Part shown: piece after piece, positions 11,564 to 19,289 of the stretch
Layout: the number at the start of each line of letters is the position of its first letter
How positions within the stretch are numbered: position 1 is the stretch's first letter
Translations under genes and position numbers: made by a program
Assembly: GCA_964016885.1 (NCBI GenBank)
Contig: OZ024742.1
Coordinates: 8,680,001-8,744,000 of the forward strand
Source: Eledone cirrhosa
Taxonomy: Eukaryota
Reading direction: 5' to 3'
DNA length: 64,000 nt
The notes under the pieces: generated by a model
Databases searched by the model: none
What the model saw: only the letters and a program-made list of their open reading frames with translations
What the model was told of the DNA's origin: nothing

Positions 11564-11625
11564 CTTTATTATATATATTTCGAAGGTTCTGCGTTGTTTT
11601 TTCAGTACATCCTCGTCAGATAAAA
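11564..11625 (-). ncRNA. Type I hammerhead ribozyme motif (same family as 16274-16343)
   Basis: Minus strand: ttttat CTGACGA ggatgtactg..cagaaccttc GAAA tatata TA ataaag. Stem I tttat/ataaa, imperfect stem II, palindromic stem III, AUA cleavage triplet. Confidence 0.65.
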
Positions 11626-12550
11626 TATATGATTTGATATATGACATACTTCTACTGTCTTGATATTTCAATTTCAGTATTGGCAGTGAGTGCTTTTAAT
11701 CTATTGTAAAACTGTATTGATTGAGTAATCAATGAACCATATTAATCTTTGGTTATACATATAAATATATTTATTAAAATAACAGATTAAACTTTAAGCA
11801 AATAATCGCTGCCTTCAACCTTAACGGGATCTTCTGAAACTGGCAAATAAATAAGCGGGGGATGGTGACGATATTACAAGAGGTGAGAGTACATGAATTA
11901 TTGTTGGATGTAAGAAGAAAAATTCAATACCGAAGTAGAGTTTAAATATTCATTTATTGTGGCTAAACCTTGTTACTCTGGAGTAACGAACGTACACTTT
12001 GCAGTTACTGATTTCCTTAGCTCCCACCCATTATTGCCACCCCGCCTTTTACACCCCTGTATCAGACAAAACTCACGTTTAACCACCCCCTTTCTGTATC
12101 TATTAAAGACCAATCTCTACCCCCTCTATATCAATACAGGGACTATACACGCCCGACATACACTCTAATCCAACACACACACAATGGTTTTTCAAAACCC
12201 ATATTCACATACAGCCTCTTCCCCCCAGACTCTCACACATACACACACACACACTTACATCTACACATACACACACACCCTACCTTACACCATCTCAGCT
12301 CGGACTTCAATTTTCTTGCTACCCTCCACCCACTGTGAATCTCTACCCACCCCTTACACACAACCACACTCTTACCTCCCGGACGCACCCCACCCCTTCA
12401 CTCTCATTTTATATATATATTTTTATATATTCCTTCTAATTCTGTTTCTATTTATTTTGATTTCATGTTTTATTTTCATTTCTATTTTCCCGTCCTTTCA
12501 TGTTTTTCCTGTTATCCACCCCCCTCACTCCCTATTTGAGTTCCCCCTAC

Positions 12551-12590
12551 TGTCCTGATGAAGGGCTTATGTCCAAAACGACGTAACCTC
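12551..12590 (+). ncRNA. Degenerate minimal hammerhead-like core of the Penelope pLTR type
   Basis: CTGATGA agggc ttat gtcc AAAAC (G12 mutated). A related copy with intact GAAAC lies at 37646-37675 on the minus strand. Confidence 0.4.
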
Positions 12591-12854
12591 CCCCATTCTT
12601 ACCAGACGTGAAGCTAATAACACTATGTAATTACTGCGTTTGTTTGTTTGTAATTTTGAACTATATCTATATATATACAATCGGACCCACACACATACAT
12701 ACATATATATATATATATATATATATATATATATATATATATATATATATATATATATATATGTGTGTGTGTGGGTATGTGTGTGTGTGTGTGTGTGTGT
12801 GTGTGTGTGTGTGTGTGTGTGTGTGTGTGTGTGTGTGTGTGTGTGTGTGTGTAC

Positions 12855-13130
12855 ATGTCGCCGTGAGCGCTACATTATCTGCATGATGTGAAACATATTC
12901 CATCAGATTTGCCCAAATGATGTTGGCATCATCTTTAAGGTACACCCAAGGCTTGGGCCCCGTGCTATCTGCCCACGACAAAAATCTCACTCGCATCTCA
13001 AAACAACAATGCGGCACAATTATTTCACCTCAATTGACCCCGCTCTCTTTAACATTACACCAAAACACATTTAATCAGAAACAGACACCATCAAGTTCAA
13101 GAAGTCTTTTGACAAATTCCTTCAAGAAAT
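12855..13130 (+). mobile_element. 3' fragment of a CR1/L2-like LINE ORF2, with stop codons
   Basis: Translates as RRERYIICMM*NIFHQICPNDVGIIFKVHPRLG...ALFNITPKHI*..FKKSFDKFLQEI, the typical C-terminal pattern of these RTs. Confidence 0.6.
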
Positions 13131-13550
13131 CCGAGACAACGAGCACCAGAATAACTGTACCGAATACTAATATAGAGACCCATAGGAACTATAGAAAATC
13201 CAGAGATAGAAATTACTTATGGTTCAATTCAATATTCAACTCCTCTATAAAAAAACAAACTACCTTCTACAATCTTTAAGCTAATTTACAAACACTTCCC
13301 TAAACTACACAAATACCATAGAATCTTTAACTGAAAAACTATCAAACTATCTTACTCTACTGCAGCCAACATAGAATCAGACATACATAAAATCAACTAC
13401 GTAAGAATCTCTAAAGAAAATAACCTACCAACATACACCATAACACCAAATACAAAACGCAAACACATAACAACATCACAACCACACGCACATCAGGGCG
13501 CATCACAACAAAACATTAACAGGCCTAAATCACAACCCACCCAGAACAAC

Positions 13551-13990
13551 ATGCAAAACCCCAACGGAGAACCGGCACACAGGAAGGCCTCCACCTGTAA
13601 CTGCCCACTACAAAATAGATGCCTGGATTCAAGTATGGTGTACGTGTGTACTATAAATTCAGGCAACTTAACATGGCACTACATAGGTTCCACGGTTGGG
13701 GAGTTAAAAAAAAGATGCTATGTTTACAGACACTCCATGAAGAACCGTAGACTAGAGAACTCTACAACGCTGGCCAACAAAATCTGGCAGCTTAAGAACA
13801 CAAACCAGGAATATAGGATTAGCTGGTCAAAATTATCGGGAGCAAGGGCCTACAACAATGGAATGTCCCACTGCGACTTTGCAATATAGAGCTATTCCAT
13901 ATTTTAAAGTTCGATAAGATGCTGCTTAACAGCAACATAGAAAGATCAATTTTCTGTAGGCAGAAAGCAGCTACCAAGTTCACACATTTC
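13551..13990 (+). pseudogene. GIY-YIG endonuclease domain of the Penelope-like element (disrupted)
   Basis: Cys motif CNCPLQNRC, VY...YIG motif, conserved R/H and IW..K..I.W; reading frame breaks near 13880-13889. Confidence 0.85.
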
Positions 13991-16343: not shown

Positions 16344-16625
16344 TATGGAACTCTTTTAACCATCTTTTAATTTCTTCTTTAATATATACTCCAGTTCTAC
16401 CAACTCTTGATATATGCATAGTCTTATTGTTCTACAATATTACTCACCTTCTACACACACACATATATATATATATATATATATAGTTGTTATATAGTAA
16501 GGTGCAATATTGGTTGTGTAAAATGGTCCAATAACTTTATGTTAGCAATATTAAGTTCTCCACGCTTTTGTATATCTCCAATTCCATTCGAGGGAACAGC
16601 TAGATGATGTAAAACGGAGTATAAG

Positions 16626-17436
16626 TATCAAAATGAAAATCCGAAGGCAAGGTAAAATTCCAATCATTTAATCACGACACATGTTTCAAGAAGCGATAGA
16701 TCGATTGTGAAGCCATGATCGATTATCACTGATCTCATCAGGTGAAAATGAATTGTCTTCAAATTCTTGATATGAGGGAGAAAAAAAACGATGTTCTCTC
16801 ACATAATTCATTCCCTCATATGAAGACACACCAGTCAGAGACAAGGCAACTGCTATTAGCTTTAGTTGAGGTCATAAAAGTTTTCAGACTTCTATCGCTG
16901 CCAAAGATACTGGACATCAAACAAATCCGTAGGGATACAGTCAGTCACAGTTTGAAGTGTGTGGGTACACACACACTCCACACCCGCATACATCGGCTCG
17001 AGGTCAAATAAAAATAAAAATAAATATATACATTCTTTTTCTTTTTCTTTTTCTTTGACCTCGAGCCGATGTATGCGGGTGCGGAGTGTGTATGTACCCA
17101 CTCACTTCAAACTGTGACTGACTGTATCCCTACGGATTTGTTTGATGTCCAGTATCTTTGGCAGCGATAGAAGTCTGAAAACTTTTATGACCTCAACTGA
17201 AGTTAATAGCAGTTGCCTTGTCTCTGACTGGTGTGTCTTCATATGAGGGAATGAATTATGTGAGAGAACATCGTTTTTTTTCTCCCCAATATCGAGAATT
17301 TGAAGACAATTCATTTTCACCTGATGAGATCAGTGATAATCGATCATGGCTTCACAATCGATCTATCTCTTATTGAAACATGTGTCGTGATTAAATGATT
17401 GGAATTTTACCTTGCCTTCGGATTTTCATTTTGATA
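16626..17436. repeat. Palindrome with ~383-bp arms and ~45-bp spacer, one HHR per arm
   Basis: 16626-17008 is the near-exact reverse complement of 17054-17436; the mirror ORFs 16742+ and 17320- confirm it. Confidence 0.95.
17311..17398 (+). ncRNA. Type I hammerhead motif (inverted copy at 16664-16751, minus strand)
   Basis: tcattttcac CTGATGA gatcagtgataatcgat..atcgatctatc..tt GAAAC atgt GTC gtgattaaatga; predicted cleavage after 17386. Confidence 0.7.
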
Positions 17437-17452
17437 TATATATATATATATA

Positions 17453-19070
17453 TAAAACATGTCTATAGAATCACAAGATAAAATATATACCATTTCCTCT
17501 CCCAATTAACATAATTAACTATATAAAAAATCGAATAGACCAGGCTATAAGAATGAGGCTTCTATGAAGAATTCTCCAACAAATAACCGAAACTAGCCCT
17601 TCGAGTCGGCCGCAACGGAATATTTATCGAATATTTCGACAGCGTAATCGCCCAGATACAGTCAATTAAACAGAATTAGGTGTAAAATAAACTAGGAGAA
17701 AATAGAATACATTTAAATACCTCTACCATGGTTTCATCCGCATTTTGAGATTTCCAGTAATTATGTAATAATTATATAACTCGAGCATCGGATTCATCAG
17801 GAAATTTGCTCGGATCTAGACACTAAATTTTCCAAAGTGATCGCGCCAAGAATTCATTCAAAATGGCTAAGAATCGTGACGTAGTCGGGATCAGGTTGGA
17901 TGGGGTGTGGTAGTTGCTTACGACTGGTGGCTTTTTTGCTAGAAAGCACAGCACAATAGAGCCAAATTTGTATCTCAACCCAATGGGAGATTATTACATA
18001 TAAAGGTTTACATATATATATATATATACATATATATACATATACGTGTTTTGCAACGGGTCACTTTGTGGCTCAATGAAAATCTAATAAATTAAATAAT
18101 CAGAGCCATATATCATAAAACATGTCTATAGAATCACAAGATAAAATATATACCATTTCCTCTCCCAATTAGCATAATTAACTATATAAAAAATTCGATT
18201 TTTTATATAGTTAATTATGCTAAATGGTATATATTTTATCTTGTTATTATTATGCTAAATGATATATATTTTATCTTGTCATTCTATAGACATGTTTTAT
18301 GATATATGGCTCTGATTATTTAATTTATTAAATTTTCATTGAGCCACAAAGTGACCCGTTGCAAAACACGTATACGTATATATATGTGTATATATATGTA
18401 AATCTTTATATATAATAATCTCCCATTGGGTTGAGATACAAATTTGGCAGTATTGTGCTGTGCTTTCTAGCAAAAAAGCCACCAGTTGTAAGCAACTACC
18501 ACACCCCTTCCAACCTGATCCCGACTACGTCACGATTCTCAGCCATTTTGAATGAATTCTTGGCGCGATCACTTTGGAAAATTTAGTGTCTAGATCAGAG
18601 CAAATCTCCTGATGAATCCGATGCTCGAGTTATATAATTATTACATAATTATTGGAAATCTCAAAATGCGGACGAAACCATGGTAGAGGTATTTAAATGT
18701 ATTCTATTTTCTCCTAGTTTATTTTACACCTAATTCTGTTTAATTGACTGTATCTGGGCGATTACGCCGTCGAAATATTCAATAAATATTCCGCTGCGGC
18801 CGACGGGAAGGGCTAGTTTCGGTTATTTGTTGGAGATTTCTTCATATAATCCTCATTCTTATAGCCTGGTCTATTCGATTTTTTATATAGTTAATTATGC
18901 TAATTGGGAGAGGAAATGGTATATATTTTATCTTGTGATTCTATAGACATGTTTTATGATATATGGCTCTGATTATTTAATTAATTAAACTTTCATTGAG
19001 CCACAAAGTGACCCGCTGCAATACACGTATATGTATATATATGTATATATGTATATATATATGTAAACCT
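17453..19070. repeat. Large palindrome of a ~663-bp unit with partial tandem redundancy in both arms, one HHR per arm
   Basis: 17453-18115 is mirrored at ~18301-18957. The unit start repeats at 18116-18195 and the unit end repeats at ~18958-19070. Confidence 0.92.
18604..18690 (+). ncRNA. Type I hammerhead motif (inverted copy at 17719-17805, minus strand)
   Basis: atctc CTGATGA ATCCG..CGGAC GAAAC catg GTA gaggt. Palindromic stem III ACCATGGT; the left copy has a fully paired ATCCG/CGGAT stem II base. Confidence 0.75.
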
Positions 19071-19099
19071 ATATATATATATATATATATATATATATA

Positions 19100-19289
19100 T
19101 GTAGAAGGTGAGTAATATTGTAGAACAATAAAACTATACATATATCACATAAGTAGCACTCAGCAGTTGGTAGAACTGGAGTATATATTAAAGAAGAAAT
19201 TAAAAGATGGTTAAAACATTTCCATATATTTTAATGCGCATAATAAAATATATGGAACTTTTTTAACCATCTTTTAATTTCTTCTTTAT
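19100..19289. repeat. Inverted copy of 16328-16455 that folds back on itself at ATGCGCAT
   Basis: 19100-19240 is the reverse complement of 16328-16455, and 19234-19289 repeats it forward. Confidence 0.85.

Follow-up and report, generated by a model that had tools for sequence, protein, structure and literature searches.

Nine type I hammerhead motifs clustered in the Eledone cirrhosa genome, very probably in truncated copies and derivatives of Hydra-clade Penelope-like elements

We analysed a 64,000-nucleotide (nt) stretch of the Eledone cirrhosa genome (GenBank assembly GCA_964016885.1, contig OZ024742.1, positions 8680001-8744000), hereafter the window, which belongs to an AT-rich and microsatellite-rich genome of 3.0 Gb. 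Our subject is a cluster of hammerhead motifs at window positions 11564-19289 (the cluster span) and its relationship to the Penelope-like elements (PLEs). An earlier reading of the letters alone (the original prediction) had placed nine hammerheads within 8 kb; 9/9 are confirmed at those places by sequence reading combined with a scan using our own descriptor, and all of them are type I (open at helix I, closed at helices II and III). They are carried by six repeat families, F1 to F6, and a tenth motif from a further family, F0, is found just outside the cluster span. Counted from helix I to helix I, the motifs are:

8669-8738, plus strand: hammerhead of F0, outside the cluster span; CUGAUGA, AUAUGUAU; strict descriptor match
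11560-11629, minus strand: hammerhead of F1; CUGACGA, 31-nt helix II, GAAA, helix III AUAUAUAU, A17; strict descriptor match
14593-14713, plus strand: hammerhead of F2; CUGAGGA, 82-nt helix II closed by UUGAUCAG/CUGAUCAA, helix III ACAAUUGU, U17; relaxed descriptor match
15362-15420, minus strand: hammerhead of F3; UUGAAAA, helix III ACGGCUGU, GUC site, helix II mutated
15649-15707, plus strand: hammerhead of F3; UUGAAAA (U3-A8), GUCC/GGAC helix II, helix III ACGGCUGU, GUC site
16272-16345, plus strand: hammerhead of F4; CUGAUGA, helix III AUGCGCAU, A17
16665-16750, minus strand: hammerhead of F5; CUGAUGA, helix III ACAUGUGU, C17
17311-17396, plus strand: hammerhead of F5; CUGAUGA, helix III ACAUGUGU, C17
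17714-17810, minus strand: hammerhead of F6; CUGAUGA, helix III ACCAUGGU
18599-18695, plus strand: hammerhead of F6; CUGAUGA, helix III ACCAUGGU

The canonical core (CUGANGA...GAAA...UH) is present in 7/9 motifs, and the two F3 motifs display a UUGAAAA core, in which U3 and A8 occur together and the 3-8 pair is kept. The identical letters in 11/11 further F3 copies examined speak against decay as the source of this core, and the same U3-A8 covariation of the C3-G8 pair has been published for PLEs of Schistosoma (PMC4209133). As had been predicted, stem III is short and mostly palindromic: the 8-letter helix III strings are all self-complementary when G-U pairs count. Helix I has 4-8 contiguous pairs across the motifs, while helix II spans 20-82 nt and is closed by 2-8 pairs, with one unpaired position before closure in F2 and F6b. 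Minimum free energy folds recover the junction for the motifs at 8679, 15649, 16282, 16741 and 17321 and do not recover it for the remainder. Besides the mutated helix II of 15362-15420, the blemishes are an A-C at 10.1/11.1 in 18599-18695, where most copies of the family have A-U, and a helix II with 2 closing pairs only in 16665-16750, a motif that our own descriptor missed. The motifs fall into six repeat families, although they are not all unrelated as first proposed, since those at 11564 and 16274 share helix I and a UUCGAAAU junction with motif 8679.

The density of these motifs is not reproduced in shuffled sequence. Window positions 6001-64000 (58 kb) were scanned alongside 100 dinucleotide shuffles: the strict descriptor gave 5 matches vs 0 in the shuffles, the relaxed descriptor 25 matches, of which a tandem array at 44-49 kb contributes 17, vs a shuffle mean of 0.06 per 58 kb and a maximum of 1, and the U3-A8 descriptor 3 matches vs a shuffle mean of 0.32 and a maximum of 3. 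Covariation among copies, which the original prediction had called for, is likewise found. Alignment A1 covers 19 motifs of the 8679/11619 type: 97.9% of 380 cells are paired in it, both sides have changed in 7/20 pairs, and the covariation score was reached by 0/500 shuffles, with slid partners pairing in 39-50% of cells; its structure was written after viewing the sequences, and the selecting descriptor already demands 3 pairs per helix. Among 59 distinct motif variants, pairing reaches past what the descriptor demands and stands well over the swapped-partner control: helix I positions 4-5 are paired in 54/59 and 49/59 variants (0.59 and 0.43 with swapped partners) and helix II positions 5-7 in 48/58, 35/48 and 36/43 (0.44-0.58). 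In 15 further copies of the F2 (14603) family, the N7 position differs in 7, with 3 changes in 90 cells at six fixed core positions, and the G10.1-C11.1 pair has become A-U in 3/19 copies related to F4. By sequence, then, the nine are genuine type I hammerhead motifs, with a predicted cleavage site after N17.

Genome searches with each family, as the original prediction had advised, find all six to be high-copy, with 1,587-4,848 candidates; these are first-look candidates from the host's own genome, and thus lower bounds rather than copy numbers. F1 (motif 11619) has 2600, of which 40 were scored at 79-91% identity, F2 (14603) 4848, F3 (15659) 1760 at 95-97% identity, F4 (16282) 2306, F5 (17321) 1587 at 92-94% identity and F6 (18609) 2968, and the outlying F0 (8679) has 876. 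The copies in and near the cluster span are:

8582-8760, plus strand: F0 short repeat, outside the cluster span; many candidates are 99% identical over 136 nt, in head-to-head pairs
11530-11774, minus strand: F1 short (~245 nt) hammerhead repeat, with (TA)n past its 3' end at 11471-11504
13134-14925, plus strand: F2, predicted 5'-truncated copy (3' 1.8 kb) of a Hydra-clade PLE, followed by (TA)n at 14926-15168
13272-13889, plus strand: frame of F2, now decayed, for a C-terminal linker (CxC...C) and a putative GIY-YIG-like endonuclease; tblastn with protein P0010, residues 503-655, 27% identity, E 8e-15
15320-15450, minus strand: F3 short-form copy (match to query 60-192) with hammerhead 15362-15420; its 3' end meets (TA)n at 15287-15323
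15619-15856, plus strand: F3 copy with hammerhead 15649-15707
16217-16485, plus strand: F4 copy with hammerhead 16272-16345 and a (CA)5(TA)11 tail at 16454-16485; extent from 11 loci
16463-17033, minus strand: 5'-truncated F5 copy that bears hammerhead 16665-16750 and abuts the F4 tail at its 3' end
17025-17442, plus strand: F5 copy, 5'-truncated, with hammerhead 17311-17396; ends at an internal GAUA fused to (TA)10 (17435-17454)
17452-18194, minus strand: F6 partial tandem of ~1.1 units of ~658-663 nt, with hammerhead 17714-17810 and direct repeat D11 (spacing 663)
18215-19077, plus strand: F6 partial tandem of ~1.3 units, with hammerhead 18599-18695 and direct repeat D9 (spacing 657), then (TA)15 at 19070-19100
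19028-19241, minus strand: F4 copy truncated at helix III and lacking the CUGAUGA core, 85.6% identical to 16217-16485; converges on the F6 tail
19226-19306, plus strand: head-to-head joint on the AUGCGCAU palindrome and short F4 fragment, ending at (TA)33 (19295-19360); direct repeat D12 and an 88-nt hairpin at 19196-19281

The elements had been called short and non-autonomous, a description that fits some of these families and fails for others. F1 has a real 5' end, because its upstream flanks are unrelated (sequence common to 0/21 locus pairs), and the ~658-nt F6 unit is found without a coding neighbour, in genomic head-to-tail runs with a 5'-truncated first unit and also in head-to-head pairs. 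The F2, F3 and F5 copies, by contrast, are 5'-truncated pieces. Other F2 copies match 13134-14941 and run on upstream into sequence coding for reverse transcriptase (RT), and we accordingly rejected the reading of a 1.7-kb endonuclease-only element that genuinely starts at 13134; a literature search for endonuclease-only PLE derivatives returned nothing relevant. Sequence is collinear upstream of the 5' boundary of the window copy in 36/36 locus pairs for F3 and 36/45 for F5, an F3 segment lies directly upstream of a PLE open reading frame (ORF) start in 2/9 loci, and endonuclease-coding sequence is found 0.8-1.2 kb upstream of F5 on the same strand in four loci (L003, L005, L007, L008). The F3 and F5 copies are therefore 3'-terminal pieces of longer elements. 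F4 is mixed, with upstream sequence common to 7/45 locus pairs, and its copy at 19028-19241 aligns with the F4 loci over the part that runs from helix III through the tail. A separate high-copy repeat, 12862-13132 (plus strand), abuts the 5' end of the truncated F2 copy; a frame near one genomic copy of this repeat (L059) is 35% identical to the F2 endonuclease frame, suggesting that several diverged PLE families coexist.

The protein evidence supports the Penelope origin that had been claimed. Proteins of 551-732 aa are matched by the F2 frame over their C-terminal third, and in a better copy (L063) the frame is 34% identical to residues 497-704 of the 713-aa protein P0001 (E 2e-36). A genome search with P0001 gave 85,251 first-look candidates, and 45 of the 63 scored have no stop over 699-767 aa; intact relatives of the F2 protein in this genome are 713-719 aa long. 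The P0010 ORF has RWK, DKT, FDIVDFYPSI and YRDDG motifs, a CxCX5C linker, CSLC..EK and a VVY...YVG pattern lacking a Cys pair between its halves (no CCHH). Published marks of the Hydra clade of C-terminal-endonuclease PLEs (Craig, Yushenova, Rodriguez and Arkhipova 2021, PMC8557442) are RWK, DKT rather than DKG, CxCX5C, no CCHH, small size, canonical hammerheads and insertion at (TA)n, and RWK, DKT, CxCX5C and the lack of CCHH are kept in an alignment of 11 sequences, with better copies of the F2 family carrying CNCHLPDKC. The best solved-structure matches of the full P0010 model (predicted local distance difference test, pLDDT, 75.6) are telomerase RTs (6zd2, 2.3e-7; 3du5_A, 3.5e-7), so that the modelled protein appears to have the telomerase-RT fold expected of a PLE RT. 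A canonical hammerhead is found ~230 nt upstream of the start codon in 6/8 loci of one autonomous family, and is inverted in one and absent in one; the family further features a second, 84%-identical repeat downstream of the ORF and an inverted 5'-truncated copy upstream (738 nt, 99.6%), and partial tandems with an inverted 5'-truncated copy are the published PLE layout (PMC8557442). From these motif marks, assignment of the elements to the Hydra clade is supported. Coding remnants of the PLE protein are found in 17 of 80 randomly placed 10-kb stretches of the genome, which looks dominated by Hydra-clade PLEs, given the P0001 candidates and the presence of hammerheads in 33/80 of these stretches.

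The copies at 16217-19306 have a regular layout. F4 on the plus strand runs into (CA)5(TA)11, which is met from the other side by F5 on the minus strand; this is followed head to head by F5 on the plus strand, whose (TA)10 is met by F6 on the minus strand, and then by F6 on the plus strand, whose (TA)15 is met by F4 on the minus strand, head to head with the F4 plus-strand fragment that ends in (TA)33. Three families are thus arranged here as inverted pairs, head to head, with (TA)n where their 3' ends converge, and the F3 pair at 15320-15856 is also head-to-head, with its minus copy ending in (TA)n. Within 40 nt of the 3' end, runs of at least four TA units are found in 5/8 copies of F0, 5/5 of F1, 5/20 of F2, 7/9 of F3, 9/12 of F4, 5/5 of F5 and 9/16 of F6, or 45/75 3' ends vs 364/4000 random 40-mers (9%). 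Several copies also stop early, with (TA)n fused to an internal UA-rich site, namely at CATTAATAT in F3, TTTAATATATA in F4, TTTGATA in the plus-strand F5 copy and TATTATTA in F2. Elsewhere in the genome, on many contigs, head-to-head pairs recur, as do head-to-tail runs that open with a truncated unit, and one genomic locus (L012) holds a second mixed nest with F5, an F6 relative (71% identical) and an F4-type inverted pair. The exact pattern of the AUGCGCAU head-to-head joint is present at 11 loci, 8 of which are perfect joints (including 19226-19251 and L171-L174), with 0 for a reversed-pattern control.

Taken together, the nine motifs of the six high-copy families very probably belong to 5'-truncated copies or likely non-coding derivatives of Hydra-clade PLEs, and the cluster likely arose by insertion, often head to head, at (TA)n, including the tails of earlier insertions. 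In vitro, a PLE protein has been reported to nick AT-rich DNA, to act on both strands by cleavage and extension, and to initiate reverse transcription at sites inside the RNA (Frangieh et al. 2024, PMC11167929); from these activities, we infer that the elements insert at (TA)n by target-primed reverse transcription, with both strands often being used. The process would begin with transcription of a partial-tandem element, whose putative endonuclease would nick AT-rich or (TA)n DNA. Reverse transcription would then be primed on one or both of the nicked strands and would usually stop early, such that two 5'-truncated complementary DNAs (cDNAs) could become joined in head-to-head orientation, with both of their 3' ends lying in (TA)n. 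Each insertion would leave a (TA)n run as the next target, and copies would thus come to nest tail to tail.

Several results weigh against this explanation. At the gathering score, Rfam gives 0 matches in the whole window; in an E-value scan of 10500-20500, the sole hammerhead row is 15654-15703, which scores 18.8 bits with the RF00163 (Hammerhead_1) model, where the gathering score is 34, and has E = 1.9; and at five other loci with compact motifs no hammerhead row is found among the 150 rows listed of 172. The covariance-model check suggested in the original prediction therefore fails to lift any motif to the threshold of a curated model. These E-value scans are swamped by microsatellites and by hairpin look-alikes of microRNA models, and the long (20-82 nt) helix II together with the loop-less helix III likely explains the miss. 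The endonuclease is also weak by tools. Its domain model (pLDDT 86.2), with a beta-beta-alpha-alpha-beta-alpha order, has no Foldseek match at E <= 0.001, Pfam finds nothing on the window frame, L063 or six long homologues, and a profile search of PDB sequences returns nothing. The weak Foldseek rows are to GIY-YIG enzymes, i.e., I-TevI (1ln0_B, E 0.2, probability 0.80), T4 EndoII and Hpy188I, the motif pattern reads VVY...YVG, R...H and E, and among Atlas neighbours PF01541 is found in 26-28% of members; the putative GIY-YIG-type assignment would thus rest mainly on motifs and on PMC8557442. For F1, F4 and F6, no autonomous partners were identified. At the 5' flanks, runs of at least four TA units are seen in 0-3 copies per family, except F1 with 5/7, and because (TA)n lies mostly on the 3' side only, a (TA)n tail cannot be told from a (TA)n target; no target-site duplications were defined.

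The Rfam result, and the published observation that PLE structures confuse assemblies (PMC8557442), would also fit an account in which the palindromes and nested inverted repeats are artefacts of assembly or duplication, or the motifs are products of chance in AT-rich DNA. We give this almost no weight, as the same head-to-head and partial-tandem layouts are found at many separate loci on many contigs, and shuffles yield close to no motifs while the helices covary.

The claim of a hotspot has to be set against the genomic background, for which the relaxed descriptor was run on the 80 random stretches (800 kb). These contain 78 motif starts, with at least one in the 33 stretches noted above, which extrapolates to ~1 motif per 10 kb and to the order of 3 x 10^5 per genome. 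Distinct kinds were counted per stretch, within its best 7.7-kb sub-window: no kind was found in 47 stretches, one in 19, two in 9, three in 5 and four or more in none. With the same descriptor, the cluster span has 6 canonical motifs of 5 kinds, to which two U3-A8 motifs and one missed motif are added, and is ~8-fold denser than the genome mean. However, at a mean of 0.65 kinds per 7.7 kb, with mild over-dispersion (variance/mean 1.27 for kinds and 1.81 for motifs), the Poisson probability of at least 5 kinds is 5.6e-4, such that about 220 such windows are expected genome-wide, a further point against a special origin for the cluster. For this genome the cluster is ordinary, albeit dense; it exceeds the usual density without being unique, and the term hotspot survives in a weakened sense, with density and kinds above the random stretches on one side and the Poisson expectation on the other.

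One could go further and dispense with any hotspot mechanism, taking the cluster as the upper tail of an element-saturated genome and its (TA)n junctions as the elements' own tails. The frequency of motifs in random DNA, its mild over-dispersion, the Poisson figure (~219 windows genome-wide) and the occurrence of at least four TA units in 9% of random 40-mers already speak for it. We nevertheless regard it as unlikely: three successive convergent 3'-end junctions fall exactly in (TA)n, F4-type copies lie within 1.5 kb at 2/10 F5 loci, 4 kinds are reached by none of the 80 random stretches, and a preference for (TA)n has been published for the Hydra clade (PMC8557442).

Within the preferred explanation of repeated insertion at (TA)n, the origin of the head-to-head pairs can be considered separately. 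In the twin priming of LINE-1, priming takes place on both nicked strands. Twin priming, taken with the two-strand cleavage and extension by a PLE protein (PMC11167929), would give head-to-head 5'-truncated pairs as in F3, F5, F6 and F4, and differs from the present case in that a single-event origin is only proposed here, with only the F5 arms clearly closer to each other than to other copies. The F5 pair forms an inverted repeat (I2) with 405-nt arms that are 96% complementary and 13 nt apart, and the arms are 96.7% identical over 399 columns vs 92-94% to other genomic copies. The F6 pair (inverted repeats I1, I4 and I7) has arms that share 95.6% identity over 707 columns, a value within the range seen between them and the remaining genomic copies (94-96%). 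By these identities, a one-event origin would fit the F5 pair better than the F6 pair. As a tentative extension, with rather low odds in our view, we propose that each head-to-head pair might stem from one event in which both strands of a palindromic (TA)n are primed, that the fresh (TA)n at both outer ends might self-seed mixed-family nests, and that the self-complementary helix III might double as a DNA-level joint where nascent cDNAs anneal. If true, the palindromic helix III of PLE hammerheads would owe its retention in part to integration, and not solely to the cleavage of RNA dimers.

Turning to function, the 8-nt helix III is self-complementary, and cleavage is therefore predicted only when two copies pair, the second being supplied by the same RNA or by a different one; a dimer model has been published for PLE hammerheads with a loop-less helix III (PMC4209133). 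Such pairing would be possible in head-to-tail multimer RNA and, judging by the arrangement of the copies, impossible at this locus, as a single transcript cannot carry two motifs because the paired copies of a family are on opposite strands. Published PLE hammerheads cleave poorly in vitro (PMC4209133). The 5' ends of truncated copies show no pile-up at predicted cleavage sites, with 0/18 lying 10 nt or less from the site predicted for F6 (query position 317), 1/7 inverted fragments starting 2 nt past it for F2 and 2/20 partner fragments starting at helix III for F4; this footprint is too weak to use. From their sequence context, the hammerhead copies here are most likely inert relics. Convergent retention of helix III, as put forward in the original prediction, is not needed, as its self-complementarity has been published as a feature that animal type I and PLE hammerheads share in general (PMC4209133).

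A different role would follow if the elements were non-LTR retrozymes, i.e., head-to-tail repeats that give rise to RNA cleaved at two hammerheads and then closed into a circle, making the locus a source of small circular RNA. Retrozymes have been reported as PLE derivatives (PMC7229834; preprint 10.64898/2026.07.22.740005), F6 forms head-to-tail runs of its ~658-nt unit elsewhere, and the window itself has a textbook array at 44101-49351, with 16.8 copies of a 312-nt unit and 17 motifs. Within 11564-19289, however, no family has two same-strand tandem hammerheads, and double cleavage of one transcript is impossible because the pairs are inverted and the F6 runs comprise only 1.1 and 1.3 units; F2, F3 and F5 are, moreover, pieces of longer ORF-bearing elements. 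By the usual definition of head-to-tail repeats of ~150-450 bp with a same-strand type I hammerhead, the array at 44101-49351 qualifies as retrozyme-like and the cluster span does not, and we consider a retrozyme origin of the cluster quite improbable. Use of the locus by the host, for instance as a small-RNA source cluster of nested transposon fragments in both orientations, is rated still lower: the fragments are dense on both strands, and transcripts of their long perfect hairpins, with arms of 405 and 588 nt, would form double-stranded RNA, but such nests are common in this genome.

The array at 44101-49351 (minus strand) is non-LTR retrozyme-like, with 99% matches between its copies, and its unit bears a compact type I hammerhead with CUGAUGA, a 14-nt helix II, ACGCGU and A17. 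A lone copy of this motif type is present in one random stretch (L119), and a second tandem family with a period of ~465 nt is found in two others (L088 and L122).

Comparison with known systems places the cluster within published biology, to which it adds examples but no new kind; type I motifs, a palindromic helix III, opposite-strand pairs and many sequence families are all already described for PLE hammerheads. Like the elements described for the Hydra clade (PMC8557442), those studied here are short, with a single ORF in which the RT precedes a putative endonuclease, RWK, DKT and CxCX5C but no CCHH, canonical hammerheads, (TA)n after most 3' ends, and partial tandems with an inverted 5'-truncated copy; unlike in that account, which describes few families in cnidarians, hemichordates, molluscs, echinoderms and arthropods, the clade appears dominant here in a 3-Gb genome. 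The PLE hammerheads of Cervera and de la Pena (2014, PMC4209133) are similarly type I, with a short self-complementary helix III, expected action as dimers, a helix II larger than usual and, in some, an unpaired base following A9; the U3-A8 core variant, opposite-strand motif pairs 100-700 bp apart and the location of most copies in truncated elements are further common features. The present motifs differ in having a helix II of 20-82 nt and a full 8-nt helix III string, as against the published minimal form without helix III. Animal non-LTR retrozymes (Cervera and de la Pena 2020, PMC7229834; Li, Clavereau and Pollet 2026) are likewise AT-rich, type I, non-coding and thought to be mobilised by PLEs, and the 312-nt array and the F6 runs elsewhere fit their definition; the copies in the cluster span differ as inverted pairs and truncated pieces, from which no unit-length or circular RNA is possible.

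The Hydra clade is little studied among PLEs, and a genome with ~1 hammerhead per 10 kb and many apparently intact Hydra-clade ORFs would be a good system for addressing the purpose of PLE hammerheads. The young and uniform F3 family (at least 1,760 first-look candidates) with its U3-A8 core offers a natural test of the C3-G8 pair, and the tail-to-tail (TA)n nests and alternative UA-rich 3' ends constrain, at the sequence level, how PLE reverse transcription is primed. A small U3-A8 hammerhead is also present at 55409-55438 (plus strand; UUGAAAA, GCAG...CUGC helix II, ACCGGU, A17) and recurs 8 times in the 800 kb of random DNA (L086, L095, L108 twice, L118, L137, L140), pointing to a second abundant U3-A8 family.

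The remainder of the window features several repeats and coding remnants:

1-6539: 21-nt satellite CACTATCATCATCACCACCAC, ~311 copies with 90% matches; the plus strand is almost devoid of G (GC skew ~ -1)
25479-28700, plus strand: LINE-type RT pieces unrelated to PLEs (RVT_1, 6.8e-9), with a zf-RVT match at 1.2e-5 and 26.4 bits, just below the curated cutoff of 27.5
29090-29422, minus strand: C2H2 zinc-finger frame
34267-37257: tandem array of 110 copies of a (AACAATAAC)-based 27-nt unit
51727-54025: tandem array of 40.7 copies of a 57-nt unit

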